A stretch of 53,495 nucleotides of DNA from Prorocentrum cordatum (taxonomy: Eukaryota), in NCBI GenBank assembly GCA_963575745.1, contig CAUYUJ010000311.1, positions 62,001-115,495 on the forward strand, read 5' to 3'. Shown here piece after piece: positions 4,048-53,495 of this stretch. How positions within the stretch are numbered: position 1 is the stretch's first letter; the number at the start of each line of letters is the position of its first letter. The notes beneath the pieces were generated by a model that saw nothing but the letters and a program-made list of their open reading frames with translations, had not been told where the DNA came from and did no database searches. The position numbers and the translations under genes are program-made.

Positions 4048-4380
4048 GTGCCCGGCCGGACCGGGGACCCGAGATGCGTAGAACGACATTCGCGCCCGCA
4101 GCCAAGCCTGCGCTGCCGCCGCTCTCCCCTGGGGCGGGCGCTGCAAAGTGTAAGCTTTGCGTGCGTGGGCAGGCGGCGAGGTATGTGCGCGCGGGTTTGC
4201 GTGGCGTCCTCGTAAGCAAGACTGCATTGGTGGCACGCGTACAGTATATGGTCAGGAACGGTCGGATTTCCCAGCGTCCTCGTAAGTAGGACTGCGTTCG
4301 TTGCACATGTGCAGTCACGGATCGTCGCGTCCGCTTTGAAAAAATGAAGGCCCCAGCAGTCATGGTTCGTTGGCGGTGCC

Positions 4381-7482: not shown

Positions 7483-7889
7483 TACCTCGTAGAGCTCTTC
7501 GTCATCGATGAGCTAGAGGAATTCCGGCGCGGGGTGGAAGGATGTTGGTCGACCCGACCAGAAGAGACAATGTGACAACTTTGGGTCGGTTTGCTAAGAT
7601 TTGAAAGATATTGGACAATTCATTAAGAAAGCAGAATTTTACGCCGAGCATTGGCATATAAACTTTGTTCCCTCAGCAGCTCAGCTCTCTAGAGCCAGTT
7701 CTAGTACCAGTCCACTCCCGCGAACCGACTTCATGTTGACTCCGAAAAATCTCAATTTCACGTTTGTTCTAAAAAAGCTCCCAGAAGCTCTCCGCTTCGA
7801 TCCTGAGCTTTCTTACGGGAGCAGGGAGCTCTACGACTCTACGAGGTTCCCGGCGGTGACCAGGTTGACGGTTCACCGCCGGCGCCAGT
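7483..7889 (+). mobile_element. Complete non-autonomous Helitron2/Helentron-like element of about 400 bp (family H2), with an empty target hairpin
   Basis: 5' terminal TACCTCGTAGAGCTC. The subterminal inverted copy CTCTACGAGGT is followed by hairpin CCGGCGGTGA-ccaggttgacggt-TCACCGCCGG and the end CCAG|T. Confidence 0.6.
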
Positions 7890-7992
7890 TTTCGCGCGTA
7901 GGAAAATCGAGGGGCGACAAGGCCACGTGCAACAACAATAAGAGAAACGCAAAGTTATAACATATGGTTTCTCGGACCGTCTTCGGGGAAGC

Positions 7993-8098: not shown

Positions 8099-8335
8099 CT
8101 GCACCCCCCTGCAGGTAGACGGCCCAAGGCAGGAGTGGACACTAATAACATGTCGAGCTTCCCGCTGAGGCGCCTTGCACACAGTATCTACAAATATCTA
8201 TTCTTCAGGAATAGACGCTTTTCGAAATGATTGTGCTCCCGCCGAGGCGCCGTGCACACAGTATCAAAAAAAAAAATAAATAAATCCTGGGCAGTATCTA
8301 GAAACTGGAGCCGGCAGTGAACCGCCAACCTGGTC

Positions 8336-9494
8336 TGCGATGTCTGCGTTGGCCGATTCGAGCTCCCTGGAGAGCAGGCCGGGACACAGAGAACCTAAAC
8401 AGCAAGGCTGCAAAGATTAAAGCAGAGATGCATTCAAACAGCGAAGCGGCACAGATATGCACAAGACTGCAAGTACACGAGAAAACAACTAACAAAAAAA
8501 TGAGAGAAGCAGTACAGACCATAGATATGGAAGCAAAGCTAGAAGCAGTGAGAGACCATACAGTAACCACTGGTTTATACAGCGATTACCGTCTCAACAC
8601 CACTGAGAAAAAAACACGAAAGTAAGAGAACTGAAATAGCGAATGCGCTTCAAAGCAATGCGAGACCATGCAGTAACCACATATAGCGATTACCGTCTCA
8701 GCACCACTGAAAGACAATGCACGTGAAACACAACGTCAAAATGTGGACTAGATAACGAATTAAGCGGGCAACATACAGAGTGAGCCAAGACACCCACCAC
8801 TACTTAGAGCGAACGCGGGCTCTTATCCCAACAAAGTGGAGATCAGGCGAAGCTCTTATTCAACACACGCGCATGCACGACAACACACACAGGCATGAAG
8901 AAAGGCAACGCAATGACAAATCACAAGAGTTCGAACTCGAAGTATGTGGAAATCAAATGCAATGAAATCTGAACTTCACTCGAGGCGAAGTATGAAATCG
9001 GATGCCCAAAGACCTCAATATCAAGATACTCAAATGTCACAAAATTGTCAAAGTACCTCAATGTCAAAGAAACCACACGTGTACAAGAGCAATAATGAAA
9101 CGAAAGAAACGATTCCAACCACCCCTCGAAGTTTCCCACTGCGTTGTGAATAAGAGTACTCAGACTGCGACCAAAGTCAAAATTGGATACGTGCTGAGAG
9201 CAACTCGTACAAGATAACAAGTGCGGCAAGTACAATCACAAGCGGCCTGGAAGTGCAAGCAGACAATGCAACAAGTACAAAACAAGCGGCCTGGAAGTAC
9301 AGGATAACAAATGCAGCAAGTACGCTCAAAGCAAGCGGCCTATGCACCTGCTCCAATGGGAGCTGTCTCACTTGACACAACAGAGAACCTGGTGCCTATC
9401 GTCTGTAGGCCCACGGAGAGGAGGTCGTCGCAGCCGACGAAGTACCCGAAGATATGGGACGGCCCAGTGGCGTACGATACGTGTGTGTGCACAG
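8336..9494 (-). mobile_element. Non-autonomous retroposon A
   Basis: Flanked by CAACCTGGTC at 8326-8335 and 9495-9504. Its 3' stem-loop resembles E1/B/C. It shares internal repeats with B/C and gcagccgacgaagtac with the E1 5' region (about 9430 vs 15485). Confidence 0.75.
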
Positions 9495-9734
9495 CAACCT
9501 GGTCTGCGGTCTGCGGGGCCCGATTCGAGCCCCCTTAGGGGGCAGGGCCAGCGGTAGGATCACCTACAGGCAACCTAAGCACTAACAGCGGAGCTGTGCG
9601 ATATACAAGTCAGCGTAGCTTTGCATATATGATACAACAGCGTAGCTGCACAGGAATATACACACATCAAGAAACAGTGGGGCTAAGCATGTATCTTACA
9701 ACAGCGGAGCTATGCAGATATTATACACAAACAG

Positions 9735-12700
9735 TCACCTGCCAAGTTGTACGTGTATACACATCTCGGCAATGCCATTGAGAAGAGAATGTGCAGCTGC
9801 CAACTCAGCCTGTGTGATCGTGCAATGGCTAGGGATCATGAAACCTCTGCGGCCAACTCCAGGGTGCCATCCACCCTGCACAAGTCCAGGGGGAAGCTGG
9901 TGAGGAGGAAGAGAGGGAACAAGATAAACATCAATAACCCAGCCACACGAGGTGCCACGCTCACACCGCCCACCGTCAAAAGCTCCTCTAAGTGCACGAA
10001 CAATATAATGACCCGTCTAATATGATAAAGAGTGTTATGATTCCAACGAACATCAGAAGTTACTTTACCCTCACGTGCAAGATGTGTCTCATAGTCCGCC
10101 TCATCGTTGCCCTCCCTATACACCCATTTCCACATATCCCTTCCCACTTCAGCCGTGACAAGATGATGGTCCTCACTCATTCTGTGGAGGCGGTTCTGCA
10201 TACCCTTGATCGTGCGGCGGTATACTTCATTATGACAGCGATATCTTCCATTAAGCCAGCGCACAACACACTGGCTATCCCCACGGAGCTCCAAGCCATA
10301 TCCACCCCCTTCCCCACGCCAAGTGGTTTCATCATCATTTATCGCGGCCAGTCGTTTCGCCACCCGTTCATTTTCCCGTCGTTGCTGCTCCTCAGACTTC
10401 TCCTCCCCCTCCTCCTCCTGCTTGAACTCACCCGTGAAGGGATCCCGAAGAAGGCAGAACTCGAGAAGATCATCCAAGTCCAGGGCGGCCAGGGTACCCA
10501 CCAGGAAAGAACGCCAGCCAGTTTCATTCCAGACCATCGTGCGATCCCAATGAACCCCGCGCGTGTGCTCGAAGACCTCGAACCAAGGCCTGAGTCCCGT
10601 CAAGACTCGATGACGACAGGCTCTAGTAAACCTTCGGCCCCCAGGGAGAGCTCTAACATGTACGTCACGCTGCTCAGTCCACTCCCCCGACGCGTGCATC
10701 ATCGTCAAGGCGCTCTGCATACTGGCAGTGGGCAATCCTCCTTCCTCCTCCCGTGCATAGGTATGGCGTACCCGCTTACGAACAGGCTCATGTACATGTT
10801 GTGAATCGTGATGCTCATATGCCGTGTTCTCCGATATACGTCTGCGAACTGATCTACTTTCCAAGGAAGATGCGCTCTGTGCCTTTCTCCTACACGAACT
10901 GTTGAGCTGTCTGGCATTCGGGGTAGGCGAGGGAACCGATAACTCCAAGAAACGCTGCGAACCACCAAAAATATCAGGATCTCGTGGCTCATGATAAAGA
11001 ATGCCCTGACTGAGTGCGTCCTCATCCACCCGACTATGTTCCTCATGGATTGTGCTCACAACATGTTTGGCGAAGAGCCACTGGCGATGAAGGGCGAGCT
11101 GGACCATCGAAGGCTTACGGGCCCACTTCAATAAGCGACGGCCACCCTTAATCCTCCTGCCCCAGTACTCTCCCCAGGACTCCGTGATCTTCTTTTTGAG
11201 ACGTCTCATGGTGGACAAGAAGTTGCCTTCAGCTGCATGTATCTGTTGGAGACTACTCGAATCCAGAGTCGTACCCTCCAAGCCGTACAGAAAGCAACTT
11301 CTGACCCTGCTATCATAACGCTGAAACTTACAACGAAGCGGAACCACGGGCGACGAGTAAAAAGAAATCTCACTCATGAAGACCCTCCGTGCCTTCTCCA
11401 GTCGGTGCTTAATGTCGTCATGATCCTGAAATCGTACATCCAATAGCGTGCCGAGAACCTCCATCCTCTCCACCTGCTTCACTATCATCTCCTCCGAAGG
11501 GCCTGCGGCGCTCTGGGAAGCCCCACGAGAACGCTTCCTACCCATCTCAGCAGGCAGGAGCCCCGGCACAGGCAGGCGGATATCCTGCAATGGACCTTGA
11601 ACGCCACAAGCCAAGAACTCCATCGAAGATGCTTTCCAGTTGAAACCGAAGCGGTGGAGGACCCCAGTCAAGTCCTCAAGCATATGAGTCAGTTCTCGCC
11701 TGGAAGATGCTGCCAGCAAAATATTGTCTGCCCACAGCCAGTGGTTGACCAAGAGATTGGATGCCTCATCAGTGAGCCTGACGCCGTATCCAGACTGCCT
11801 CCAACCTGCCGTCACTGGTGCAAGCATACGAAGTGTCTGGGCAACAAACAGCAAAGGCGCCTCCAAGGAGCCTGTACGTATGCAAGTATCCCACGAGATG
11901 GTCGTAGAACACTGTTGGAAGCTGATCTCTGCCGTATTACAAGCATAACTCTCAAAGACAGCATACACAAGGGCAGGATGGACATGATGGAATAAAAGCG
12001 CCTCTGCTGCACATCTCACCGTGAAATTATCAAACGCCTTTTCAATGTCAGCACTTGCAAGATAAAGACTCTCCTCCTTCCCCCACACAACGCCGTGTTG
12101 AGCAAGACGTTTGAGGGGGGCCGTGACCTCATAACATTTGTGCCCCGCAATAAAGCCATATAAGTTGCAACCTGGCGGTGCAGCCTGCCGAACGCGGTGC
12201 TCTAGAAGTACACATAGACAACTGCTATACCACTTACCAAAATGAGAAAGAAGTGAGAGGGCCCGCGTTTCTTCAAAATCACGAGCCTTGGGATTCTTAG
12301 GCATCAAGCATACCAAGATCTCTCTCCAGGACTTCGGTGAAACATGTTTCTGATCGTACAGCAAACGGAATAAGGTAAGTATGTGTCGGAGGGCTTCCCA
12401 TGGCAATGCTTTGAGCACCGATGACGTCACCCCGTCTGCACCTGTTGCCCGTCCTTCCCTGAGTCTAGACCGTGCCTCCAGCAAGAGACCCATGTTGATC
12501 GGGTTGCGGTGGGGCTCTCCAGAGTCTCGCAGGGCCTTACACTGGTTCTTAAGCTCATCCAAGCACGCGTTGGTGTCCTGTCGGTGGGGATCGCTGGAGT
12601 ACCTCAGGAGCCCATGCCGCCGAAGGCCCTCAATCCACTTCTCCTGGTCACGCGTGAGGACCCCGTCAACATACATGTGCGTAATAACAGGCCTACGACG

Positions 12701-14002
12701 GACACCATCACGAATACGGTAAAGCTCACATGCACGATCATGACGCTTACGTACTCGACGCCACCTCCTTGCTGTCCCCTTGTACTCCTCCTGGACTCTC
12801 TCGTACTCCTCCTGTCCCACGTTAGCCCCGCCATATCGTGCCACCCTCCACCTCTTCCTGACCTTAAAGAACTCCTCCTTTATCAGTAAATCCTCCTCCG
12901 AATATCTGGGATAGTCTGAAACAGGCTGACCACGGGAACGGGAGATATCCAAAGTCTCACTGGCACCCTCAAGTATACTCTGTGTCATGACCTCAAAACC
13001 TACATCCGTGTGGATCTGATTCACGAGCTCGGGCTGGCAAATCGCTCTCTCCAAGCCGGCTGTCTGCTGGAGCTCGAACCCTGGCTGAAGCTTCCAGGTC
13101 TTGAGCTGAGGCCGACGTCGATACCTCAACTGAGCATGCTGGGCGGGCATATCGGCACACAAGAGCTTGTGATCGCTAAACGTCCTTTCCGTCGCCTCCG
13201 ACCGTGGGACCTGGGACGGCACAACCCAAGAACAAGTCACCTCTGGAGTCATCCAAGAAGCTGGGACCGCAAGATAATCATAGACGTGCTCGTATGTGCT
13301 CGAATTGTGTCTCCAAGTAGGCTGACGAGTCCCAAAAGTGTTGGCTAGCTGCAACTTGAGGGCCCCCATGGTCTTCAGAAAGGCCCCCGAGTACATCTCC
13401 CTCATCCTGTTGGCTCTACTTTCGTCACCTCCACTAGACCTCCCCCTCTTACGTATAGGCCCATTCACCGCCTCCCCCGTAACCTCCACCCCATTGATCC
13501 TGTGGTGCGGGAAAACCTCCACGTTGGCGTCAGCCGAGATAACAACCTCCTCAATGTGAAATCGCTTTTTGGCCGCAGAGACATGTGCAACAAGATCCGA
13601 TAACACGTCCGTATAGAGCTTGAAACTAGCAAGAAACCCTTCAGGAGAACGGCGTGCTTCACCCTGTGCACCCCGCTCAGACTCCTTATGAGGGAGATAG
13701 ACAGAAACGAAGATGAGCTTGCGAAAGATTGCAATGACCCAGCGGCGACCACACACAACATCGATAAGCAGATGTCTCCATACACCTCGGCACAAGATGG
13801 CAGCCCGTCTCCCCACGTTCTCCCCTTCATCTGCCGAGCGATGTATATCCCAACCCGCATCTGCAAGATCCAAGTCGTGTAAGAACTGGCTCTCTTGGAC
13901 CCCGACGATGGAAATCTTTAATTCGGCAATGTGATTCATGCACTCGGAGGTGTATCTTCCCAACCTCCGAACGTTCCAACCTCCAACAGAAGCTGGGCAC
14001 CG
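9735..14002 (-). CDS. E1 ORF2: APE endonuclease, reverse transcriptase and permuted RNase H; frameshift near 10000-10040
   Basis: GWNV, VQE, SVYLP, ADAN, YDYL, SDH (APE); ADIEKAFD, IRTGSLEAP, WADN (RT); GDSQ...REGNDEAD, then in a shifted frame RGAFDGG...TITQAELAAA ending at TGA 9735-9737. The frame is open up to the ORF1 stop at 14003. Confidence 0.88.
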
Positions 14003-15537
14003 TCACGAGCTGCTATTCACCTGCCTCTCCCAAGTCTTGCAGTCCAGATCTGGATCGATGTGCTGGACCCGCTCGGACACGAACTTCCATCCCACGGTAT
14101 CCGTCCACGTACCTACACACACTTTATCACTCTGACTATCCTTCTGCAGGTATGCCCAAGCCTTTGCAGGCCCTTCAGGCTCAAAAGTGATGAGAGCAGT
14201 GGCAACAGTCTTGAGCTTATGAAAGATCGCAGTCGCCTTGCGAGTCTCCCCCACTCTACGTCGGTCCTGTGGTGCCGGTTGGACAAACCAACCGAGGTGT
14301 CGATCTTTGCATGGTCCAAAACTATTCTGACAACCGACCAGATCAGGGCACGAATTGGACCAGGCTGAGGCCCACTCGTTGCGTACTTCCCAGACCGTCT
14401 CTTTCGAAGTCCCTGGCATGAAGTATATGCGAAACTTGGTCACACCAAATCGATTGGAAGCGATATCCCGTCCGTCCTACCTCTGTCGAAGATCTTAGTA
14501 ACGTCACTCTCCCGTGCTTGCGATAGTGTGTACAACTTACCTATCATGTTCCTAACCGTGGTGACCTGGATCTTGGCCTTATCTCGAGTTTCAACCTTTC
14601 GGGGGTCCTCTTGCGCGAAGCCGCTCACCTGGATCCAAGTCGGAACATGTGGTACAAAGGGTCTCTGGAAGTCAGCAGTCCGAGAATCACGAGTAGACGC
14701 ACCTCCCAGAGATGATGAATCTGCCCAGGGATCTCTAGAGTTCATCTGAGACTGAAGTGCTTTGATCTCTTTCGCCTGGGCCTCCTGAGCTGAACGAATC
14801 TCCTGCACCGACGAAGCAATAGGGGCAACCTGCTCTGATACCCTCGTTTGAATCTGCTCTTTGATGTCAACAGAGTTCTGCATAAGCATCCTCTGCATAT
14901 CTTCACGCATGGCATCGAACTGTGCACGGAGCATAGTGGCCAGATCTCCAGCATCACCTCCTCCTCCTCCACTACTACCACTTCCATTCCCACTAACTGC
15001 CCCACCTCCACCACCCTCGGCATCACCAAGAAGACGTCTATCTTCCAGGAGCTTCCTCTGTCGCTTCTCTCCGTTGCCCTCAGTTCCCATATCATCATCA
15101 GAAGTCGGAACCATCTTCCTCTTAAGATCACACTGCCCACAACTGGAAGTAGAATACCGATAAGCTCGACAAGTAGGGCACCTACTAGCCTCCAGATCAC
15201 GATAGTGTTCGTCCTCGAGTTCTTCAAGAAACTTATCCCAACCCCGTGAAGGTGAAAGTCGGTACGTGATGAAATCTGCTGCAACAAAAACGGTCAAAGT
15301 GTCCTTCTCAACTGCCAGAGCAAAACTGGTAAGTGCCGGGCTCCCAAGAGTATCACAAGCAAACAGCAAAGATACAAGTGCAACAGGTAGCGGCCTTGCG
15401 CCTCCAGCGGCACGTGTGGGCTCACCCGCTAACACGAGCAGAGTACAAATGCAGCGACCTATGCGCAGCACGTCCAGGAGGTTGCAGCCGACGAAGTACA
15501 CGAACTTATGGGCCAGCGCGCACCCACGCGCGCCCAC
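14003..15537 (-). CDS. E1 ORF1 (coiled coil plus putative RRM-like domain), frameshifted near 14440; start uncertain
   Basis: ORFs 14440-15537 and 14003-14443. A heptad-rich segment is followed by PTWIQVSGF, matching the motif in the E2-E4 ORF1 proteins. Confidence 0.7.
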
Positions 15538-16035
15538 GGCCGCCCAGGGGGCAGCCTGAGGAGACAGGCTTGAGGAGGCCCCCGACGGGCCAGGCCACCG
15601 CTGAGATCCCCGAGGAGGGACAGCAGCAACCTGGTCACCGCCGGGAACCTCGTAGAGCTCCTTACACTGGTCAGAGTCCTCAGAATCGAAGTGGAGTCAT
15701 AAAACAAAGATTTTCCTAAAATCTTGATTTTCGATTTTTTTTTCGATGTTCATATTGACTCGGTTCCGGGAAGTCAACTCTTAACAAAATACGTCGGGAG
15801 AGCTCAGCTGCTGTCAGAGAGAAGTTTATATGCCAATGCTCGGCGTAAAACTGCTCTCACAAAAAATGGTAAATATCTTTCAAATCTTAGCAAAACCGAC
15901 CCAAAGTCGTCACATATTCTTTTCTGGCCGGGTCGACCAACTAGCTCAACCCCGCGCCGGAATTCCTCTAGCTCATCGATAACGAAGAGCTCTACGAGGT
16001 ATATTGTTGTGCGTCGGCTTCGTCGCAACTTTTAC

Positions 16036-17360: not shown

Positions 17361-17805
17361 TTCAAAGTGTAGCCCGGGAATGGTGTTCTGAGAACTTGAA
17401 GAACACGCAGTGGCCCACAGCTGGCTCCGGACATTCAAAACTGGGAGCCGGCGCTAAACCGTCAACCAGATTACCTCCGGGACCCTCGTAGAGCTCTACA
17501 TAAACCAAGTCGGTTCACTGATAACAGCAGAAAAACGCTCCTCAAAACAAGCTAAAAGCAAAGATGTTGTTTCCGGTGTTACACAACGTTGGTTTCCCCT
17601 GGTCTTTTGACCGAAATAATACAGCTAGAGCCCTGAGGATTACACCATCGAAAGCGCCATGATTAACTGCATACAATAAAAATTCAAATTCGCAAAACGA
17701 ATTTCAAAATCTTGCAATCTTCGAAAATCCGATCCCAGGTCACCACATTGTCCGTCCCGGCCGGGTTGGCCAACTGGGAGCCGGCGGTAAACCGTCAACC
17801 AGGTT

Positions 17806-20149: not shown

Positions 20150-20159
20150 CAACCTGGTC

Positions 20160-35500: not shown

Positions 35501-38500
35501 GACAATATATAATGTCGAAGAAAAATTGCAGAGAACGAGTAGTTTTTCAACCCAAGCGATTTCAGAACTGGGCGCCGGCGGTAAACCGTCAACCTTTGTT
35601 ACCGCCGGGGGACTCGTAGAGCTTCCTGACAACATATAATGTCGAAAAAATGCCACCGACAAAATATTGTTCAGCCCACCCAATTTCAAACCTCTCAGAT
35701 GCAACAGCCGAACGCCCCCGATGCTTCTGGATTGTCTTCTGTACGAGCTCTGTAGCTCTCCTACAGCCCGAGTTACGTGCGTAAATCGACAGCACCTCTG
35801 AAGATGACTCGAACAATACAAATAGTTTGGCAAACCTAGCTCGAGTATCAGACCGACTTCAGACCTCAGCATGCGACAGGCGGACGCGTCTGATGTCTCT
35901 GAATCGATTCCTGTGATTACCAGCCCTGCAGCCCCCCCTACAGCCCGAGTTAAGTGCAGGAAACCGACAGCACCTCTCAGGATGACTCGCACAATACGAA
36001 AAGTTTCGCAGACCTAGTTCGGGCAGCAGACAGAGTTCGGAGCTCTGGATTCGAAAGGCGGACGCGCCTGATGTCTCCGAATCGATTACATTGATTACCA
36101 GCCATGCAGCCCCCCTACAGCCCCAGTTGAGTAGAACCGACAGCATCTCTCAAGATGACTCGAACAATACGAATAGTTTCGCGATTCTAGATCGGACAGC
36201 AGACCGAGTTCAGAGCTCTGGATTCAACAGACAAGGGCCACTGATAATTCTGAATCAGATTCTGTACGCATCAGCTCTGTAGCTGTCCTGTAGCTCGAGT
36301 TAAGTACAGAAAACTGAGAGCGCCTGTCAAGATGACTCGAATAATACGAATAGGTTTGCGGACCTAGCTCGGCTAGCAGACCGAGTTCGGACCTCTAGGT
36401 TCAACAGGCGAACGCGCCTGATCATTCTGGATCGTTTCGCTGTGCTTACTAGCTCTGTAGCTGTCCTGAAGCTCGAGTTATCTTGAGAAAACCGTCACCG
36501 CGTGACAAGAAGACCCGAAACGGGCGATCCCGCCTGGACGCTTTTTGGCAGTAAAAGGTACCCAATCGAGCTGAGATCAAGATGGCGAGCGGGAATAAGA
36601 TCGAATATCACGGGAAAAAATACTAGAGCTCTAACGAATGGTTCAATTTCGAAAACAAAATGTTCCACCGACCAAAAGTCACCAAAAAGTCCGTCGAGAT
36701 TTTTCTTGCCAACTAGCTCTCCAGCGCCCCGGAATTACTCTTAAGCTTCCAGCAATAACTTCCTCAGGGAAGCTCTACGAGTTATTTTCAACCGACAAAA
36801 ATTCCTCAAAATGACCGTCGAGATTTCTCTTGCCAACTAGCTCTCCAGCGCCCCGGAATTACTCTTAAGCTTCCAGCAACTGGCGCCGGCGGTGAACCGT
36901 CAACCTGGTCACCGCCGGGAACCTCGTAGAGCTCCTTCCACGCGTGAGAGTGCTTAGAATCGACAGAGAGAGCTTCTAGGAGCATTTCGCGAAAAAGGCA
37001 AAATTGATTTTTTTTCATGCCAATATGAAGTTGGTTCCGCCAAGTGTTTTGATAATAAATGTGCGCCTACAGGGCTCATATTGAGACGCAGAGGCCCTCA
37101 TAATCGTTCACAGGTGCGAAAAATCTGCTTTCTCAAAATGAATTGTCAATTATCTTTCAAATCTTAGCAAAACCGACCCACAGTTGTCACATTGTCTCTT
37201 CTGGTCGGGTCGGCCAACTGGGCGCCGGCGGTAAACCGTCAACCTTCCTTACCGCCGGGGGGCTCGTAGAGCTTCCTGACAATCTATAATGTTTTCAGAC
37301 CTCCCCGATGCAACAGCCGAACGCCCCCGATGCTTCTCGATTCTCTTCTTTACGAGCTCTGTAGCTTCCTACAGCCCGAGTTACGTGCGTAAATCGACAG
37401 CACCTCTCAAGATGACTCTAATAAAACGAATAGTTTGGCAACGCAGCTCGAGTATCAAGCCGAGTTCAGACCTCTGAATGCGACAGGCGGACGCATCTGA
37501 TGCCAGCGAATCGACTCCTGTGATTACCAGCAGCCCCCTTACAGCCCGAGTTTAGTGCAGAAAACCGAAAGCACCTCTCAGGATGACTCGAACAATACGA
37601 ACAGTTTCACGGACCTAGTTCGGGCAGCAGACCGAGTTCCGAGCTCTAGATTCGACAGGCGGACGCGCCTGATGAATTCAAATCGATTCCTGTAACCACA
37701 GCACTGTAGCCGCCCAGCCCGAGTTGAGTGCAGAAAACCGAGAGCACTTTGAAGATAACTCGAACAATACGAATAGTTTCGCGAGTCTAGATCGGGCAGC
37801 AGACCGAGTTCAGAGCTCTGCATTCAACAGACAAATGCGACTGATAATTCTGAATCGGTTTCTGTAAGTATCAGCTCTCTAACTGTCCTATAGCTCGAGT
37901 TAAGTACAGAAAACCGAGAGCGTCTGTCGAGATGACTTGAATAACACGAGTAGGTTTGCAGACCTAGCTCGGCTAGCAGACCGAGTTCAGACCTCTAGAT
38001 TCAACTGGCGAACGCGCCTGATTATTCTACATCGACTAGCTGTGCTTATCAGCTCTGTAGCTGTCCTAAAGCTCGAGTTATGTTCAGAAAACCATCACTG
38101 CGTGTCAAGATGACTTGAAACGGCCGATCCCGCCTGGACGCTTTTTCGCAATAAAAAGGTACTCGATCGAGCTGAGATCAAGATGGCGAGCGGGAATAAG
38201 ATCGAATATCACGGGAAAAATACTAGAGCTCTAACGAATGGTTGAATTTCGAGAACAAAATTTTCAAACGAGCAAAAGTCATCAAAACGTCCGTCGAGAT
38301 TTGTCTTGCCAACTGGGCGCCGACGGTAAACCGTCAACCTTCCTAACCGCCGGGGGACTCGTAGAGCTTCCTGACATATAATGTGGAAAAAATGCAGAGA
38401 ACGAATAGTTTTTCAGCCCAAGCGATTTCAGACCTCTCGATGCAACAGCCGAACGCCCCCGATGCTTCTGGATTGTCTTCTGTACGAGCTCTGTAGCTCT

Positions 38501-40924
38501 CCTACAGCCAGAGTTACGTGCGTAAATCGACAGCACCTCGGACGCGGACAGGCGGACGCGACTGATGTCTGCGAATCGACTCCTGTGATTACCAGCCCTG
38601 CAGCCCCCTACAGCCCGAATTAAGTGCAGAAAACCGACAGCACCTCTCAGGATGACTCGAACAATACAATAGTTTCGCGGACCTAGTTCGGGCAGCAGAC
38701 CGTGTTCCGAGCTCTGGATGCGACAGGCGGACGCGCCTGATGTCTTCAAATCGGTTCCTGTGACCACCAGCACCGTAGCCCCCCCCCAGCCCGAGTTGAG
38801 TGCAGAAAATCGAGAGCACTTCTCAAGATGACTCGAACAATACGAATAATTTCGCGATTCTAGATCGGGCAGCAGCCCGAGTTCAGAGCTCTGGATTCAA
38901 CAGACAAATGCGACTGATGTTTCTGAATTGGTTTCTGTAAGTATTGGCTCTGTAGCTGTCCTATAGCTCGAGTTAAGTACAGAAAACCGAGAGCGTCTGT
39001 CAAGATGACTCGAATAATACGAATAGGTTTGCGGACCTAGCTCGGCTAGCAGACCGAGTTCGGACCTCTAGGTTCAACAGGCGAACGCGCCTGATCATTC
39101 TGAATCGATTAGCTGTGCTTACCAGCTCTGTAGCTGTCCTACAGCTCGAGCTATGTTCAGAAAACCGTCATCGCGTGTCAAGATGACTTGAAACGGCCGA
39201 TCCCGCCTGCCTGCTTTTTGGCAGTAAAAGGTACCCGATCAAGCTGAGATTAAGATGGCGAGCGGAATAAGATCGAATATCATGGGAAAAAATACTAGAG
39301 CTCAAACGAATTGTTGAATTTCGAGAACAAAATTTTCAACTGACCAAAAGTCAGCAAAATGTCAGTCGAGATTTTTCTTGCCAACTAGCTCTCCAGCGCC
39401 CCGGAATTACTCTTAAGCTCCCAGCAAGAACTTGCTAAGGGAAGCTCTACGAGTTACTAGCTCTCCAGCGCCCCAAAACTGGGCGCCGGCGGTAAACAGT
39501 CAACCTTTCTTACCGCCGGGGGACTCGTAGAGCTTCCTGATCATATATAAGATCGCAAAAAATTGCAGAGAACGAATATAGTTTTTCAGCCTAAGCGATT
39601 TAAAACCTCTCGATGCAACATGCAACAGCCAGACGCCCCCTGCGCTTCTGCGTACAGCCCGAGTTACGTGCGAAAATCGAAAGCACCTCTTAAGATCACG
39701 CAAACAATACAAATAGTTTCGCGAATCTAGCTCGAGTATCAAACCGAGTTCAGACCTCTGAATGCAACAGGCGGACGTGCCTGATCTCTCTGAATCGATC
39801 CCTGTGATTATCAGCCCTGCAGCCCCCTTACGGCCCGAGTTAAGTGCAGAAAACCGACAGCACCTCTGGAGATGACTCGAACAATACGAATAGTTTCGGG
39901 CAGCAGACCGAGTTCAGAGCTCTGAATGCGACAGGCGGACGCGACTGATGTCTCAAAACCGATGTCAGTGATGACCAGCCATGCAGCCCCCTTACAGCTC
40001 GAGTTAAGTGCAGAAAACGGACAGCACCTCTCAAGATGACTCGAAGAATATGAATAGTTTTGCGGACCTAGCTCGGGCAGCACACCGAGTTCTGAGCTCT
40101 GGATTTGGCAGCTGGACGCGTCTGATGTCTGCGAATCGTTCCCTGTGAGCACGAGCCTTGTAGCCCCCCTACAGCCCGAGTTAAGTGCAGAAAACTGACA
40201 GCACCTCTCAAGATGACTCGAACAATACGAATAGTTTCGCGAACCTAGCTCGGGCAGCAGACCGAGTCCAGACCTCTAGGTAGAACAGACGGATGTGCCT
40301 GATGATTCGTAATCGATTTCTGTGAGAATCAGCTCTGTAGCTGCCCTACAGCTCGAGTTAAGTACAAAATACCGACAACGCCTATCAAGATGACTCGAAA
40401 CAGCCGATCCCGTCGCGACGCTTTCTTGCAGAAATATTTACCCGATCGAGCTGAGATTAAGATCGCGAGCGGAAATAAGATCGAATATGGTCAGAAAAAA
40501 TACTAGAGCTCAAACGAATTGTTAAACTTGGTAGCGTCCACTTGGCAGCGTCCAAAACCCGGAGACCAAAGAGAATCTCGGGAAAACTTGGTAGCGTCCA
40601 AAACCCGGAGAGCGAACGGAGCCTAAGGAACTGGGCGCCGGCGGTAAACCGTCAACCTTGATTACCGCCGGCGGACTCGTAGAGCTTCCTGATCATGCAT
40701 AATGTTAAAAAGTTGTAGACAGCGAATAGTTTTTCAGCCCCAGCGATTTCAGACCTCTCGATGCAACAGCCGAACGCCTCTCATACTTCTGGATCGTCTT
40801 CTGTGCGTACCAGCTCGTAGCTCTTACAGCCCGAGTTCAGAAGAGGGACGAAATCTGCCAAGGCGTTTGGTGTTTGGTCAGGCTACACAGGGCGCGTGCG
40901 CCCAAGCCTAAGGGCTAGAGCCAG

Positions 40925-43900
40925 TTAAATCCGCCTCCTCCGCTTTGCAGAGGAAATTTCTTTAACGATGTGCTCCACACCTGTGCACAGGCGCTCGGCA
41001 GCAGATAATTCTGCCTCCGTCACGGTGGCTCCTACATCAAACATGTAGGCTTCTGAGCTCACGAGTGTCCACGGGCCATTCTCTGGAGCAACTTCGATCC
41101 AGTGACCTCCTGCAGCACCCTCACTGCTCACTCCACCATCCCAGCATCCTCTGATGTATTTGATGTTTGTCCTGTTCTGTTTGATATAGTCGTGCTTGTA
41201 AATTCTGTAACAGTTTCCTTCTCTCGCATGGTGTGTAAGCTCATCAGCATAGGCATTGGCTTCCCTATAGATATGTTTCCAGAAATCCCTACCGTACGTC
41301 GGGCATCGTATGTTGTGTTGTTCACTCACGTCATACATGATATTTTGTATCCTGGCGATCCGTTTGGCATACCCACTGTTGTCACAAGCCCAGACTCCCC
41401 TCAACCATTGTACGACCGTTTTACTGTCTCCGCACATTTCAACAGCGATACCTTCCATCCCAGGGTCCCATATCGTAGTCTGTTCATTAATAACTGCAAG
41501 ACGTCGGGCCAACTCGTCATCTGTCGGTGTCTTCGCAAACCCTCCCATCCTCCTCTCCTTACTCCTCCTCACAAACATATCCTCCACTTTGGGTATCTGT
41601 GATATGCGTTCCACAAACTCCTCCCAATCCGTCGGTACAACGCACGTGTCGTGCCACAGAAGAGACCTCCATTTTTCAAAGGGTGCATGCCAGCTGCTCG
41701 CCACGATTCGTGGTCTGCCTCTGAGCCGTCTCGTTCCCTCTCTCGACATCGTCCGACTTACTGCCGCCAGCATTTCATCCCTCTGCACCGTCCACTCCCC
41801 TGATACGTGCAACATGGAGCGCAGCGTCTGCTGCCACGATTTGCTGTACACCGTGGACGGCATGTGGCACTTATATTGGGATACCTCCACGGCGAATTCA
41901 AAGTTATACCTCACAACTTTCTCCACCAACGTTTTGAGCCCCCCCTCCTTGAACATCTCCCTGGATCTATTGGTACTGCGATCCCTGAACTCCTCCCACG
42001 CTTCCGTCTCTTTTCTATGTAATCCTCGCATTGTGTTCAAACATATTCCTTCAAAGCTCCTCAATATGTTCAGCACATGTTCATTACAGCTCCACCCCAC
42101 ACATCCATGGCATATGATCTGTTGAACTCTGCTCTGGTACCGTCTGAATTTTTCCCTCATGCTCACCGCGCGTGATCGATAGAATTTAATATCAGCATAG
42201 AAACACCGCCTGCCTGCATCAATACGGTGCCGCACTGCATGGAAATCCCTCGGGTTCGCCACAAATTTAACTCCCAGTATGTCACACTCGCTTTTTCTCG
42301 GCAGAACCACTGCCTCACGTAATTGATAGGGTAGGCTGGGGTCTCCAGCCCGTGCACAAATATCATCTCCCAGTTCACAAACTAATGATTGTGGTCCCTG
42401 GTTCTGTCTCAGCCCAAAAACCAGATACTCCAGGCTCTCAATCTTCCAGTCCATACCAGCCCGTCTGAGGGCCACGGTCAACATACTCACCATATTCCTC
42501 AGCTGATTCGCTGAGGCTGCCAGCAGCACCACATTGTCAGCCCATATGTAATGGTTGACCAGCGCCTGTTGTGTCCCCTCGCCTTCCAATCGTACTCCAT
42601 AATGACATGCTTCCCATGATTCAGCAATAGAGGCCCAAATTGCCTCCAACACAATATTGAAGAGCACTGGGCCTTCTTTCCCTCCAGTTCGCACCGACTT
42701 GTTATACAGGATCTCTTCACTGCACACATCCTGGAAATCAAAAACTGCTGTGTTTCCAATCATAGGCTCCACAATTGCAATAATCAAATATGTTGGATAT
42801 CTCAGATGTTCCATCGCGCGGATCACCATCGAGACAGTGACATGATCAAACGCTTTCTTTACATCCATTATCCCCATATGTACCGACTCGCCCTTTCCCC
42901 AGAGAGTGGCATGACGTGTCATATGCAGCAAAGGGGCCGTCATGTGATGAACTTTGTGACTCTTCTGGAATCCATATGTCGCCAATTCTTTGATATGTCC
43001 ATGCTCCTCCACAAGAATAAGAGGGCACGCCATGTACCACTTGCTCATAACACTCAACAGCGATATTGCACGAGTCTCCCCAAATGTTTGGATCATGCTC
43101 ATTTTTGGAATCAACTGTACGCACAACTTTCTCCACGAATCTGGTGACGACTTTTTCTGATCATGTATTTCTTGAAATGAGTGTCGTATCAATCTCAATG
43201 CATTCCAAGGTATTGCTTTGAGAAACTCCGCCACCAGGCCATCAGAGCCCGCTGCGGTGCCGCCCTTCAATCGGGCTCGAGCCCCCAGCAACACACCCAT
43301 AGATATGACCCTGTTCGTAGTTCTGCCCTCTGCCTCCCACTGTGTCCGTAGTCGATGCAACTCTCTCTTTGCAGCTCCTCCCTCCCCATCACATGTATAT
43401 GACCGTTGTACGTGTTTGTTGAGCTCCTCCACCCATCTTTGTTTATTTTCTGTCAGTATCCCGTCACACAGCATTTCCTTGATACACCTACGGGGTCCAT
43501 GTTTGAGGCCAGTGGAGTCCTTGAGGAGCTGTTCCCGCCTGAACTTTCTTCGGAGTGTTTTTTGACGTCTCAATAATTGTTTCCTACGCTCACCGAAGAC
43601 ACCCCTCCTTAACTCCGCTTCAACGTCCACGACTTGGTCAGGTTTTTTGATTGGTTTAGTATCCGCCCTGCCCTTTGTATGCCTACACATCGTCGCAGCA
43701 CTCACAAGCATCTGTCCCACTGTTTGTATATTTATGTCACCCTGTTGGTTCATATGTTGTTGTACCTGCACATCGGCCAGCGTACTGAACACATTCGCTG
43801 ACTCATAATCCTCCGGGGCCCAATTGATGAGGCTCGGGGGCCTGGGTCGCACGAAAGGCTTGCGCACCGACGCATGTTTTATCCTCACCCCTACCTTCGC

Positions 43901-44659
43901 ATGGTCACTGTAGCGTGACGCTCGATCCTGTGTAGGATCAACAAATTCCACCGTGCATTCAAATGAGCAGTTGGTCCGAGCCTCCTCGGTACCTGCAAAT
44001 TGTGTCGGCACAAATACATAGTCCAACACCCTGGAGTAGCTGCTGGTACTCCACGGCCTGTGCGTCACTTGTCGCACGCCGTAGGTGTTGGCTGCACAAA
44101 GACCCCAGTGATTCAGAAAGCGCACGAGCATGTCCCTCCTCTCCTCATGATGTCTCGCCTCCGACCTCATCCACACCTCCTCCAATCCTTCTCCCGTGAA
44201 CCCCAAGAGATTTGGTTCCAGCTCCGTCTGCGCACCTGCCCCCACAAACTGCAATACATTGGACCCCTGGTATTGCTCGCTACATAGTTGCATGCATGCA
44301 CACAGCTTAGCTAGAACGTCACAATATTCATCGAGCCTATCATCTCCCCGCTGCACTGTGGGTAGGTACACTGAGGACACGACCACAGATGCAAATTGTA
44401 CAACTGCAAACCTCTCACCGCACTTACTGTCCGAAATAGTCGCCGCCCATAGGCCCCTGAAGGCCACAGCAGCTCGTCGGCACACACTAAAACGCACCTG
44501 CCACCCACATGCTTCAAATGCTTCGGATAACATGTACTGACACTCCTGCAAGCATAGCACATCACAATGACAAAACTCCAGCATTGCTGGCAAAAGCTCG
44601 CTATTCCTCATGTTGACATTCCAAGTTGCCACCGCGAGCTGAGTGGCAGACTGGCACCG
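40925..44659 (-). CDS. E3 ORF2: APE, RT and permuted RNase H; the APE xDxN motif is degenerate (GAGAQ)
   Basis: ATWNV, LQE, SVYLP, LDY, SDH; MDVKKAFD, VRTGGKEGP, WADN; GDSKTVV...REANAYAD...WDGG...TEAELSA. Confidence 0.9.
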   Translation of the reverse strand, partial: RCQSATQLAVATWNVNMRNSELLPAMLEFCHCDVLCLQECQYMLSEAFEACGWQVRFSVCRRAAVAFRGLWAATISDSKCGERFAVVQFASVVVSSVYLPTVQRGDDRLDEYCDVLAKLCACMQLCSEQYQGSNVLQFVGAGAQTELEPNLLGFTGEGLEEVWMRSEARHHEERRDMLVRFLNHWGLCAANTYGVRQVTHRPWSTSSYSRVLDYVFVPTQFAGTEEARTNCSFECTVEFVDPTQDRASRYSDHAKVGVRIKHASVRKPFVRPRPPSLINWAPEDYESANVFSTLADVQVQQHMNQQGDINIQTVGQMLVSAATMCRHTKGRADTKPIKKPDQVVDVEAELRRGVFGERRKQLLRRQKTLRRKFRREQLLKDSTGLKHGPRRCIKEMLCDGILTENKQRWVEELNKHVQRSYTCDGEGGAAKRELHRLRTQWEAEGRTTNRVISMGVLLGARARLKGGTAAGSDGLVAEFLKAIPWNALRLIRHSFQEIHDQKKSSPDSWRKLCVQLIPKMSMIQTFGETRAISLLSVMSKWYMACPLILVEEHGHIKELATYGFQKSHKVHHMTAPLLHMTRHATLWGKGESVHMGIMDVKKAFDHVTVSMVIRAMEHLRYPTYLIIAIVEPMIGNTAVFDFQDVCSEEILYNKSVRTGGKEGPVLFNIVLEAIWASIAESWEACHYGVRLEGEGTQQALVNHYIWADNVVLLAASANQLRNMVSMLTVALRRAGMDWKIESLEYLVFGLRQNQGPQSLVCELGDDICARAGDPSLPYQLREAVVLPRKSECDILGVKFVANPRDFHAVRHRIDAGRRCFYADIKFYRSRAVSMREKFRRYQSRVQQIICHGCVGWSCNEHVLNILRSFEGICLNTMRGLHRKETEAWEEFRDRSTNRSREMFKEGGLKTLVEKVVRYNFEFAVEVSQYKCHMPSTVYSKSWQQTLRSMLHVSGEWTVQRDEMLAAVSRTMSREGTRRLRGRPRIVASSWHAPFEKWRSLLWHDTCVVPTDWEEFVERISQIPKVEDMFVRRSKERRMGGFAKTPTDDELARRLAVINEQTTIWDPGMEGIAVEMCGDSKTVVQWLRGVWACDNSGYAKRIARIQNIMYDVSEQHNIRCPTYGRDFWKHIYREANAYADELTHHAREGNCYRIYKHDYIKQNRTNIKYIRGCWDGGVSSEGAAGGHWIEVAPENGPWTLVSSEAYMFDVGATVTEAELSAAERLCTGVEHIVKEISSAKRRRRI

Positions 44660-46279
44660 TCAATTGTTCGTCTGTCTGGGCTTCGTGAGTAACCCCTCTT
44701 GATCCACCTCAGGCTCCACCCTCCTCAGATTATTAGTGTGTAGCGCCCACCCGCTGTGTACACCCCATTCAGCAATCAGTACTCTGGTGTCTGGATCTGC
44801 TTGTGGGTTTTGTGTAAACCATATGTATGATTTTGGCGGCCCTGGCTCCCCCTTGCATATTGTCCCCGTCGTTGTCTTCACTTCCGCAAAGCAACTCTGG
44901 AACTTACCAATCTGTTGGACATGGGGTGTTCTCCATGGCGCGCATTCTACATGAAACTTTACATTCGGTGGTAGGTCAGTGTTTCCCCTCTTGTATTCGC
45001 TGTCGAAACAATTCCGAACCTGCCATATGATCTCCACTGCCGTCCCCTTTTTGAAATAGATCCGCCCTCGTGTGTATGGCCAGTACCTGCCAGTATTCTC
45101 CCCCGCAGTTCTCGCATGATCAAAAGCAGCATTATGTGTTGCGTCCAGCGATGCCAATCCCAATAATTTTGTTATGTTGTCGGCCAGCACCTGTTGTTTC
45201 AAGGCCTCCCTTTGTTTTATCTCTCTATTCTTCCAACCCTCACGTGATATCCAACCTTTGAACTCAATATATGATGGTACCCAGTTCGAATTTGCCCTGC
45301 ACCACTGCCCGCATCACCTGATCCGTATCTAGTCGAACCGCTTGCGCAAGATTGAGCGTCTCCATTTTTCAGATTCTGAATGTCAGCTTGGGCCTGCTTC
45401 ATTTGCTCAGATAACGTTTTGACATCTGACGTTGATGGTACCCAGTTCGAATTGTGCCCTGCACCACTGCCCGCATCACCTGATCCGTATCTAGTCGAAC
45501 CGCTTGCGCAAGATTGAGCGTCTCCATTTTTCAGATTCTGAATGTCAGCTTGGGCCTGCTTCATTTGCTCAGATAACGTTTTGACATCTGACGTTGTTCT
45601 ATCAATCTTTTCCTCCATGACATGTAAATCAGCTGCAACCGATGTTTTGAACTCACTAACCGTCGCAGTTACTTCACTCTGGCCCTTCAAAATCTGTCTG
45701 AACATTTCCTCGGGCGTCATTGTAGCTGGTTGAGGCGCCTGGACAGCAGCACTTTGAGCTACGGCCAGACCACTCGTAGCCTTGGGGACTTGGGCTGTAG
45801 CTAGATGAGGCGCCTGGACAGCAGCACTGGAAGCCGCGGCCAGACCACTCGAAGCACTGGAACCTTTGCCCTCCCCTTTTCGCCCTCACCTCTCTCAACC
45901 ATTCACTACTCGCATTCCCTCCCATTTTGCTATCTTCTGCTTTGTCATCCGCCATGATTGCTGACGAACGTCGTTTATTTCTCTCTTTGACTGTACGCAA
46001 TGTGTGAAGTGCAGCCTGATATCTATCTGATTGCCCAATCTTCTTGAAATCGTACGCTTCCTGCTGAACAAATGCCTCTGGTGGAGAAATTTCCAATTCC
46101 AGTGCTATCTGATCTTCTCTCTTCTCCTGCGTCGTTAATCGCGGCACAGTAGCTGATGTGTCTTTCAACCAATCACACGGATGTGGGTCACAATCCACAC
46201 CAAAGTCAGCTGACGTGAAATATTCACTCTGATCGTCTTCTGATGGTATAATATATGCTCCCTGCGAGTCCGTTTTCAA
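44660..46279 (-). pseudogene. E3 ORF1, broken by frameshifts and an internal duplication of about 161 bp (45272-45432 / 45433-45594)
   Basis: ORF pieces 45674-46279, 45217-45720 and 44660-45202. Coiled coil and WVPSYIEFKGW motif across the shift. Confidence 0.75.
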
Positions 46280-46521
46280 TCCAACAGCCCACAGTGGTCT
46301 TTTGTAAAATCCAGACAGATCCTGATCTTCCTGCGATCCCCACGATATCTTGATATCAAGAACGAGAGCGAGGATTCAATGTGAACACAGCCCCCGCGAT
46401 ACGTCAAACACGCACCGCACGAGAGGGGGGCTCGAGGCAAGCCTGCGTGCGTGCCCTGACGTGGGCCCTGTTCGACGTCGAACCCTGACGTCTCGAACCC
46501 TGACGTCTCGAACCCTGACGT

Positions 46522-46548
46522 CTTGAGCCAAAATGGCTTGAGCCAAAA
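46522..46548 (-). other. Two tandem relict dinoflagellate spliced leaders
   Basis: The minus strand reads TTTTGGCTCAAG-CCATTTTGGCTCAAG at the exact 5' junction of E3. Confidence 0.9.
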
Positions 46549-47840
46549 TCTGCCAAGGTAACTTGAAGAATGCGAAGAGCTTTGCTGAGCTAGTCCGAGA
46601 GACAAACCGAGTTCAGACCTGGATGCAACAGACGAGCGCGCAGAATGATTTCGAATCAGTTTCTGTGCGCATCAGCTGTGTAGCTCTCTGACAGCACCTG
46701 TCAAGATAACTCGAACAATACGAATGGGTTTGCGAACCTAGCTCGAGTAGCACACCGAGTTCAGACCTCTGAATGCGACAAGCGGACGCGCCTCATGTCC
46801 GAATCGATTCCTGTGATTATGCCCCCTGCAGCCCCCCTACAGACCGATTTCAGTGCAGAAACCCGACAGCACCTCCCAAGATGACTCGATCAATACGAAT
46901 AGTTTCGCGAACCTAGCTCGAGTAGCAGACCGAGTTCAGTCCTCTAAATGCGACACGCGAACGCGCCTGATGTCTCCGAATCGATTCCTCTGATTATGAG
47001 CCCTGTAGCCCCCAACAGCCCGAGTTAAGTGCAGAAAACCGACAGCACCTCTCAAGATGACTCGAACAGTACGAATAGTTCGCGACCTAGCTCTGGCAGT
47101 AGACCAAGTTCAGAGCTCTGAATTAACAGACAAACGCGCCCGATGATTCTGAATCGGTTTCTGTAAGTATAAGCTCTGTAGCTGTGCTACAGCTCGAGTT
47201 AAGCACAAAAAACCGACAACGTCTGTCAAGATGACTCGAATAATACGAATAGGTTTGCGGACCTAGCTAAGCTAGCAGACCGAGTTCAGACCTCTGGATG
47301 CGACAGACGAACGCGCCTGATCATTCTGAATCGATAAGGTGTGCTTACCAGCTCAGTAGCTGTCCTGTATCTCGAGTTGAGTCCAATATACCGACAGCGC
47401 GTATCAAGATGACTCGAAACGGCCGATCCCGCCACAGTGCTTTTCGATAGTAAGATTCACCCGATCTAGCTTAGATCAAGATGGCGAGCGGGAATAAGAT
47501 CGAACATCACGGGAAAAAATACTAGAGCTCAAACGAATGTTCAAATTTTGAGAACATAATTTTCAAGAGAGAGCTTCTCGAAGCATTTCTCGAAAAATTG
47601 AACATTGATTTTGTAAATGTCGAAATCAAATTGGTTTCCCAAATTGTTTCGGTAGTGAAAGAGCGCCTAGAAAGCTCATACTAAGACGCTGGAGCTCTCA
47701 TAACCTTTTACAGGTGCGAAAAATCTGCTTTCTCAAAATGAATTGTCAAACGGCAACCGGCGGTGAACCGTCAACCAGGTTCTAGGCGTTCTAGGCGGGC
47801 CCTAGCAGGGTTAAGCTCCTTAGGAGCCCCAGACCCAGTC

Positions 47841-53448: not shown

Positions 53449-53495
53449 TTCTGGAATGGCAAGGTGATTACCGACGTATCTGGTTCCTGGACGAT

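Follow-up and report, generated by a model that had tools for sequence, protein, structure and literature searches.

Retrotransposons at a conserved hairpin: evidence that a LINE clade targets the 3' terminus of a Helitron2-like repeat in Prorocentrum cordatum

The window analysed here is a stretch of 53,495 nt from Prorocentrum cordatum (assembly GCA_963575745.1, contig CAUYUJ010000311.1, positions 62,001 to 115,495), in which a recurrent hairpin is split at several places by long interspersed nuclear elements (LINEs). The hairpin lies near the 3' end of a repeat, hereafter the host, whose sense strand is the minus strand of the window and which falls into a Y family of ~340–420 bp and an X family of ~1.2 kb, whose copies in one head-to-tail run measure ~1.1–1.4 kb. 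Its consensus is CCGGCGGT(A/G)A-ACCGTCAACCnnn(n)-T(T/C)ACCGCCGG, and of its 19 copies 14 are uninterrupted (empty), one (22406) has its right arm deleted and four (8321, 17791, 23492 and 47767) are split by long inserts. Six retroelements lacking long terminal repeats (non-LTR retroelements) account for the splits: E1 with A, B1 with B2, C, and E4 (Table 1). We propose, with a probability of about 0.8, that the loop of this 3'-terminal hairpin is the specific integration site of a LINE clade, comprising the autonomous A, C and E4 and the short non-autonomous derivatives E1, B1 and B2, whose members enter it in a single orientation.

The hairpin is strongly over-represented in the window. For its half-arm CGGCGGTRA, 30 copies were counted where 0.65 would be expected, a number attained in 0 of 100 shuffles, and the loop core ACCGTCAACC occurs 21 times with at most one mismatch against 2.63 expected. 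A loop-core match was counted as a hairpin when its left arm carried no more than two mismatches, which holds for 19 of the 21; the other two, at 28207 and 48687, are chance matches. The 10-bp stem folds as single-stranded DNA with -13.7 to -16.1 kcal/mol (z -1.5 to -2.5). Known RNA genes were rejected as the true target, with 0 Rfam matches at the gathering threshold and 0 tRNAs from ARAGORN. Among the empty sites, loops with CTGG lie at 36896 and 7872, with CTTCC at 37235 and with CAGG at 23152; the commonest X-type loops have TTTC in six copies and TTTG in one.

Where do the retroelements enter? All six lie on the minus strand, with the loop core reading ACCGTCAACC on the plus strand, and their break point is identical. 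Duplications of 10–12 bp begin at (T)CAACC and are perfect in E1, A, B2 and C. In split hairpin 1, the left half (8311–8325) carries two substitutions and follows a host terminus, AACTGGAG, that begins at 8303, while at 15627 the far copy of CAACCTGGTC continues into ACCGCCGG. The duplicated sequence is the loop variant of matching empty sites, CAACCTGGTC being that of 36896 and 7872 and TCAACCTTCC that of 37235, and three loop tails (TGG, AGG and TTCC) are used. B1 is the irregular case: its flanking repeats (CAACCAGGTT on the left, CAACCTGGTC on the right) have 3 mismatches in 10 positions, and the host half on its left is not the same variant as the one on its right. A first-pass annotation, made from the sequence alone, had described this pattern. 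Its coordinates for insertions in the hairpin motif all check out, as do the single orientation, the presence of empty sites and the use of different loop variants by divergent elements; its duplications of 10–12 bp from (T)CAACC are found as written at the junctions, the unequal repeats of B1 included.

Given the orientation, a random insertion would hit one of the 19 positions in 53.5 kb with a chance of ~2e-4, so that four independent sites are not plausible by chance. Nor are the hairpin halves parts of the LINEs, as intact hairpins in which the sequence that is duplicated there stands only once occur in more than 110 LINE-free contexts. Sequencing runs that contain the stretch come from marine metagenomes and three coded organisms, and four runs were compared over 17400–29260. 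A joint from 23495 to 29146 (12 shared letters), found in five contigs of run X1, five of X3 and one of X11, was considered as an empty allele and rejected: because the shorter side measures 21–22 letters only, these joints are most likely paralogous empty hairpins. The loose ends at 22031 and 29146, among those listed, are empty hairpins too.

Table 1. Positions of host repeats, hairpins, inserted elements and open reading frames (ORFs) in the window
Feature	Position	Strand	Remarks
Complete Y-type host copy, inverted	7483..7890	+	plus is here the putative Helitron-sense strand; hairpin empty
Empty hairpin, inverted	7851-7882		opposite orientation to the others
Split hairpin 1, left half	8311..8335	+	decayed arm CCGGCAGTGA, ACCGC, duplication CAACCTGGTC at 8326-8335
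E1	8336..9494	-	1.16 kb, non-coding LINE derivative
Middle duplication copy CAACCTGGTC	9495..9504	+	between E1 and A
A	9505..15626	-	full-length LINE, 6.1 kb
A ORF2	9836-13963		1375 aa; APE, RT, C-terminal RNase H-like region
A ORF1	14440-15537
Right duplication copy CAACCTGGTC	15627..15644	+	overlaps right arm TCACCGCCGG; host Y body then to ~16006
Empty hairpins (starts)	17458, 23152, 30083, 30651, 33720, 34136, 35458
Split hairpin 2, left half	17781..17805	+	arm CCGGCGGTAA, ACCGT, CAACCAGGTT from 17796
B1	17806..20149	-	2.3-kb element
B1 single ORF	18501-19703		400 aa
CAACCTGGTC separating B1 and B2	20150..20159	+
B2	20160..22030	-	B-family copy, 5'-truncated relative to B1
B2 ORF	20689-21996
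Split hairpin 2, right half	22031..22048	+	CAACCTGGTC and right arm TCACCGCCGG
Split hairpin 3, left half	23482..23507	+	arm CCGGCGGTAA, ACCG, duplication TCAACCTTCCTT at 23496-23507
C	23508..29145	-	full-length LINE, 5.6 kb, short A-rich tail
C ORF2	23701-27564		1287 aa
C ORF1	27673-29127
Split hairpin 3, right half	29146..29165	+	TCAACCTTCCTT and right arm TTACCGCCGG; host X body then to ~30067
X-type host run, head-to-tail	33702..40845	-	copies of ~1.1-1.4 kb, all hairpins empty
X-type run, plus-strand starts	33702, 34118, 35566, 37216, 38311, 39477, 40629
Empty hairpins (further starts)	35585, 36896, 37235, 38330, 39496, 40648
Empty Y-type site (example)	36878..36918	+	terminus AACTGGCG, then hairpin CCGGCGGTGA-ACCGTCAACCTGG-TCACCGCCGG
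Empty site, loop variant CAACCTTCC	37216..37258	+	variant occupied by C
D duplication AAATCTGCCAAGG	40851-40863 and 46546-46558		13 bp
D	40864..46545	-	LINE of the same clade, outside hairpin
D ORF2	40925-44632
Split hairpin 4, left half	47757..47781	+	arm CCGGCGGTGA, ACCGT, CAACCAGGTT from 47772
E4	47782..53495	-	LINE, 5' part beyond window end
E4 ORF2, broken into three frames	47841-49280, 49311-50942, 50902-52146
E4 ORF1-like frame	52189-53448

The inserts are non-LTR retrotransposons of the type that encodes an apurinic/apyrimidinic endonuclease (APE), which agrees with their original description as retroelements. Pfam RVT_1, a reverse transcriptase (RT) family, matches the ORF2s of A (E 8.6e-8), D (9.8e-15), E4 (3.6e-8) and, just under the cut-off, C (3.6e-6), and D ORF2 also matches the RNase H-like RVT_3. 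When the N-terminal 300 residues of these four proteins are aligned, QE, YLP, N, DY and SDH are invariant, and a DAN motif is kept by A, C and E4, with GAG there in D; we take these to be the catalytic positions of APE-type endonucleases. A predicted model of the A N-terminus (predicted local distance difference test score, pLDDT, 62.9) has APE1/ExoIII as its top Foldseek match (E ~3e-6). Of its PDB matches, 119 reach E≤0.001, and the TRAS1 endonuclease takes rank 43. E1, A, B2, C and D are each bordered by duplications of 10–13 bp, and no terminal repeats were seen.

A phmmer search of PDB gave 0 matches for the LINE proteins, and a language-model atlas placed A among APE/RT/RNase H clusters in generic terms only. 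An RT profile built from the four ORF2s found 20200 proteins at E≤0.001; at E≤1e-30 it matches 185 cluster representatives. Among full-length relatives, the ten best are of environmental origin and without informative names. Word-index protein searches, which returned 3 and 8 proteins, named no LINE clade; two of the three proteins from one of them bear the generic names exonuclease III and Bombyx endonuclease-reverse transcriptase.

Are these insertions separate events? One or a few ancient insertions could in principle have been spread among host copies, with no repeated targeting, whether segments were duplicated or exchanged through unequal crossing-over or gene conversion; the head-to-tail host arrays invite recombination, and the mosaic B1 has flanking repeats that differ from each other. 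However, the ORF2s of A, C, D and E4, while forming one clade, share 26–38% pairwise identity, and A, C and E4 show no nucleotide similarity in a self-comparison of the window. The duplication at each of these three matches its own loop variant. When 200 bp on either side of the four filled sites are compared, they align in part, at 65–83% identity, no better than the flanks of any pair of host copies. Thus, the low ORF2 identity and the differing host flanks indicate independent insertions rather than copies of one locus, and spread from a few old insertions is hardly credible. That diverged families arrived independently at one nucleotide, in one orientation, supports targeting.

The short elements appear to depend on the autonomous ones. 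The 3' 400 bp of E1 are ~75% identical to the 3' end of B, and A, E1 and B have in common a 3' module made of a stem-loop followed by GCTCGAAYCGG. Because of this module, E1, B1 and B2 were probably mobilised by an A-type enzyme. The B ORF (400–435 aa) showed no similarity to A ORF1. The 5' end of B1 is A-like and its 3' end E1-like, and its identity to B2, ~83% in the 3' 1.2 kb, jumps to 97.5% in the 5' 680 bp. Together with the unequal repeats of B1, this jump suggests that recombination between B copies at two sites, or gene conversion, best explains B1.

The 3' tails consist of short tandem units. In A, E1, B2 and E4, the earlier tail unit closes with the same three bases (GAC or AAC) that open the duplication of that element, as in CGCAGAC-CGCA before GAC and GCCTAGAAC-GCCTAG before AAC; B1 retains GAC in its tail despite an AAC site. 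These bases are suggestive of target read-through and re-priming, hence of long residence in the target. A and C combine intact long ORF1 and ORF2 with perfect duplications, which points to recent activity. In the DNA runs, bins of the host repeat are 30–100 times deeper than LINE bins. A polyA RNA run (X8), in contrast, has bin depths of 62–2888 over B and 157–1265 over C, yet a depth of 0 on the host bins at 21756–22943, the deepest of the DNA runs. We take this to mean that the LINEs are transcribed and that the signal is no DNA carry-over, although contig depth is a poor gauge of level and the X8 signal shows presence only. B1/B2 (17806–22030) are the deepest of all parts in that RNA run.

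What, then, is the host? On the minus strand, Y copies open with (T)ACCTCGTAGAGCTC at the 5' terminus, X copies with (T)AACTCGTAGAGCTTCC, a motif that folds into a hairpin with the bases just downstream (-9.4 kcal/mol in Y; -10.0, z -4.6, in X). Its 3' end consists of GAGCTCTACGAGGT, the reverse complement of the 5' motif, then 2–6 nt, the hairpin, and 8 nt ending in T; ~43 nt separate the 3' inverted repeat from the terminus. X copies contain 175-bp central tandem repeats, a T precedes the 5' end in all eight window copies (8/8), and no duplication was seen around the two copies at 7483–7890 and 8303–16006. Passages of PMC3627910 describe Helitron2 elements as having terminal inverted repeats that are asymmetric, a 5' hairpin, a 3' repeat that directly precedes the 3' hairpin, and a T at the 5' side, the 5' inverted repeat lying 0–4 nt from the 5' end, its 3' counterpart 20–30 bp from the other. 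For HINE/DINE-1 elements, parts of PMC4067079 give, measured from the 3' end, 38–60 bp for subterminal repeats and 8–35 bp for a palindrome, and mention central repeats and flanking Ts.

The host thus resembles Helitron2/Helentron elements (HINE, DINE-1) in its asymmetric inverted repeats, 5' hairpin and 3' repeat just upstream of a palindrome, and further in its central tandem repeats, head-to-tail arrays and, apparently, T flanks. Its 3' distances are inside the HINE ranges and longer than the 20–30 bp of Helitron2. It differs from Helitron2/Helentron in that no Rep/helicase (RepHel) partner was seen, such families being absent from the Pfam matches of the 45 window ORFs scanned out of 102 of at least 130 aa, and in that its terminal module of ~45 nt, including the loop of 13–14 nt, is unusually constant across unrelated elements. 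From its sequence architecture, we consider it likely that the host is a non-autonomous Helitron2/Helentron-type element. Targeting could also be real with a host of another kind, for instance a satellite or a transposon of unknown class, in which a hairpin happens to stand next to a short inverted repeat. The lack of RepHel among the ORFs scanned, the frequent satellite-like head-to-tail arrangement and the ~43 nt of the 3' inverted repeat compared with 20–30 bp in Helitron2 lend this some weight, yet all structural hallmarks appear to be present (5' hairpin, 3' repeat, a hairpin whose distance from the terminus is 8 nt, T flanks and central repeats), the distances agree with 38–60 bp and 8–35 bp in HINEs, and more than 110 copies with unrelated flanks and interiors show transposition rather than satellite amplification. 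A host other than a Helitron is thus unlikely. The first-pass wording, which placed the insertions in the terminal hairpin of another transposon, is borne out insofar as the host is separate from the LINEs, far more abundant than they are and has its hairpin 8 nt from the terminus.

Host copies are also flanked by a single plus-strand A at both ends (33689–33711, 15988–16006 and metagenome loci L014, L020 and L104). This A corresponds to T on the putative Helitron-sense strand, and head-to-tail junctions share one (33689–33711); the shared base resembles the TT target described for HINE/DINE-1. In a host-like copy that starts from the hairpin at 30642, ~13 copies of an 89-bp unit (92–97% matches) fill 31258–32453, a central repeat distinct from the 175-bp unit of the X family.

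A scan of marine metagenome contigs with the 20-nt left arm plus loop core found at least 124 loci (at least 133 matches). Among the matches listed, to which the following counts refer, the right arm is kept in 114 of 124 unique contexts, is missing in 7 and falls on contigs too short to judge in 3. Of the 114, 95 also keep a CTCGTAGAGC-like repeat (≤2 mismatches) 1–6 nt further on, while interiors and outer flanks are unrelated. Of the 114 copies, 105 have an A at the eighth nucleotide ahead of the hairpin, with no conservation at -9 to -12. Because conservation starts exactly 8 nt before the hairpin, the host terminus is fixed there; it is a T in 105 of 114 copies. Three of the 7 contexts without right arm look like chance (L032, L039, L107), two are decayed (L003, L034) and two are interrupted (L101, L116). 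The interrupted pair diverge from the hairpin right after CAACCNGGT, the entry position of the window LINEs, and the insert end in L101, ...GCGCTAG, resembles ...GCCTAG of E4. Within the 300 nt available, neither insert has protein similarity to the window LINEs, and we treat both as leads only. Two matches in viral contigs are chance, both lacking the right arm and sharing one unrelated context. One 5555-nt metagenome contig carries five terminal hairpin modules (L088–L091), which shows that head-to-tail clustering is not peculiar to the window.

Why should a loop stay so constant? In the 3' hairpin of Helraiser, loop mutation was as harmful as hairpin deletion and a stem swap was tolerated, according to passages of PMC4778049. 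By analogy with this loop requirement, and with the caution that Helraiser is a Helitron1, the loop may be held constant by function and hence offer a dependable target.

How would a LINE enter such a loop? The junctions, duplications and orientation are direct results, as are the independence of the insertions, the protein domains and the host architecture; the order and position of the nicks, recognition of sequence rather than structure and the membership of the host in Helitron2 we infer. Assuming standard target-primed reverse transcription, the LINE endonuclease would nick the window plus strand, opposite the Helitron sense, immediately 5' of ACCGCCGG; this junction of loop and 3' arm would be the place of the first nick at all four sites. 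The freed 3' OH would prime cDNA synthesis on the LINE RNA, and a second nick on the minus strand 10–12 nt away, at ACCG(T)^CAACC, would yield the duplication. Recognition would most likely be of double-stranded sequence that includes the asymmetric loop core ACCGTCAACC: symmetric arms cannot set an orientation, so the core must be read. With the core restored at either flank by the duplication, another element can then insert beside the first. The target, multicopy and kept constant by the Helitron's need for a terminator, would be a harmless and durable landing site, while each insertion would split the terminator hairpin of that one Helitron copy.

Alternatively, DNA structure could drive insertion, with structure-specific nicking or pre-existing breaks at the loop of a cruciform, hairpin or fragile site. 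Consistent with this, the 10-bp-stem hairpin folds stably as single-stranded DNA, the first nick would fall at the loop/stem junction, and three different loop tails (TGG, AGG, TTCC) are used. Against it, all six elements have one orientation despite symmetric arms, staggered duplications of 10–12 bp are typical of endonuclease-dependent integration, and the fold z-scores are modest (-1.5 to -2.5). Moreover, E1+A and B1+B2 imply that a palindrome already split by several kilobases was reused, which favours recognition of duplex sequence or a half-site over a cruciform. Insertion driven by structure is therefore improbable, and of the two kinds of endonuclease offered in the first-pass annotation, sequence-specific or cruciform-specific, the tandem insertions favour the former and disfavour the latter.

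Several observations weigh against site-specific integration into a Helitron2 terminator. D, a LINE of the same clade, inserted outside any hairpin. Only 4 of 19 window hairpins are occupied, and the commonest X-type loops, in 7 copies, are all empty; at most 2 of ~117 true metagenome hairpins among the matches listed are interrupted, and neither insert resembles the window LINEs at the protein level. The basis is one 53-kb window with four sites and at most six events, of which the tandem pairs are possibly not fully independent. The mismatched duplications of B1 call for an additional recombination, which the identity jump supports and does not prove. A Pfam Exo_endo_phos match was found in D only, below cut-off, and the APE model is only moderately confident. 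Finally, with no RepHel gene seen among the window ORFs scanned, the Helitron2 assignment is one of structure only. D itself sits in an internal repeat of a host copy, and its ORF2 is 30% identical to that of A; hairpins hold 6 of the 7 clade members of the window. Exact patterns from the 3' end of LINE C had 0 matches in viral and 0 in metagenome contigs.

A more far-reaching reading makes the LINEs hyperparasites: the clade would have co-radiated with the Helitron2 lineage, each family matched to one loop variant. In this scenario, which we hold to be rather improbable, the match might lie in the endonuclease together with target-derived bases at the RNA 3' end, insertion might disable termination and thereby drive read-through and head-to-tail arrays, and recognition might occur while Helitron DNA replicates, on its hairpin in extruded or single-stranded form. 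If true, it would amount to an arms race of two mobile-element classes at a functional cis-element.

How does site-specific integration into the terminator compare with known systems? Parts of PMC4640811 and PMC6719617 list, as targets of site-specific LINEs, ribosomal DNA (rDNA), telomeres, small RNA genes, microsatellites and one Xenopus DNA transposon; most target-specific LINEs fall into clades that branch early or into the Tx1 or R1 clade (passages of PMC4640811). The precedent that the first-pass annotation invoked, Tx1L, is real: passages of PMC6719617 name Tx1 elements targeting Tx1d as a case of a LINE specialised on another transposon. Like the window LINEs, Tx1L/Tx2L of Xenopus laevis, which enter Tx1D/Tx2D, are APE LINEs with a fixed site inside a multicopy transposon and one orientation. 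Their target, in contrast, is an internal repeat of a DNA transposon, that of the window LINEs the terminator hairpin loop of a Helitron2-like element. Tx1D is presumably another kind of DNA transposon; Christensen et al. (2000) reportedly describe Tx1L/Tx2L. The window system differs further in that several diverged families use different loop variants, in the C-terminal RNase H-like domain of its ORF2s, and in a LINE lineage that is probably different.

R1 and TRAS/SART elements, LINEs of the R1 clade at 28S rDNA and telomeric repeats, use a sequence-specific APE endonuclease, as the window LINEs probably do, and the TRAS1 structure is the one at rank 43 above. The window LINEs differ from them in targeting a mobile element rather than a host gene or telomere, and in a marine protist host as opposed to an insect. 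R1 and TRAS/SART have multicopy harmless targets, reinsert head-to-tail and carry 3' ends related to the target, as the window LINEs do. Full-text literature, searched outside subscription journals and Repbase Reports, gave no account of the terminal module or of LINEs that target Helitron ends.

Specialisation of one mobile element on another is rarely seen, Tx1L into Tx1D being the closest precedent. If the proposed targeting is true, the terminator hairpin of rolling-circle transposons would be a new class of LINE target, and a constrained cis-element of one transposon would serve as a durable safe harbour for another. The three loop variants, each with a different family, offer natural variation for studying APE endonuclease specificity. 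The remarkably constant terminal module of ~45 nt, probably of Helitron2 type, is itself widespread in marine plankton DNA.

Some features of the window lie beside these subjects. At 23476/23477, 17773, 22388 and 37217, a Y-type copy ends early after ...GGCCAACT and the terminus of the next hairpin element adjoins; contigs of run X11 at 23476 carry on with Y's own end instead. These points look like a recurrent nesting or end-bypass point. Between a Y-type copy and the next hairpin-bearing repeat, a 1.3-kb array at 16036–17360 holds ~238 degenerate GCCTCA hexamers. The first 7400 nt of the window are G+C-rich (60–66%); more than one frame holds long ORFs there, and no Pfam family exceeds its threshold. 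They contain 21/32-bp GGCC-rich tandem arrays at 747–2157, a 335-bp repeat in three copies at 4380–5383, and, at 6114–6572, a weak match to CxC5 (KDZ transposase-associated).

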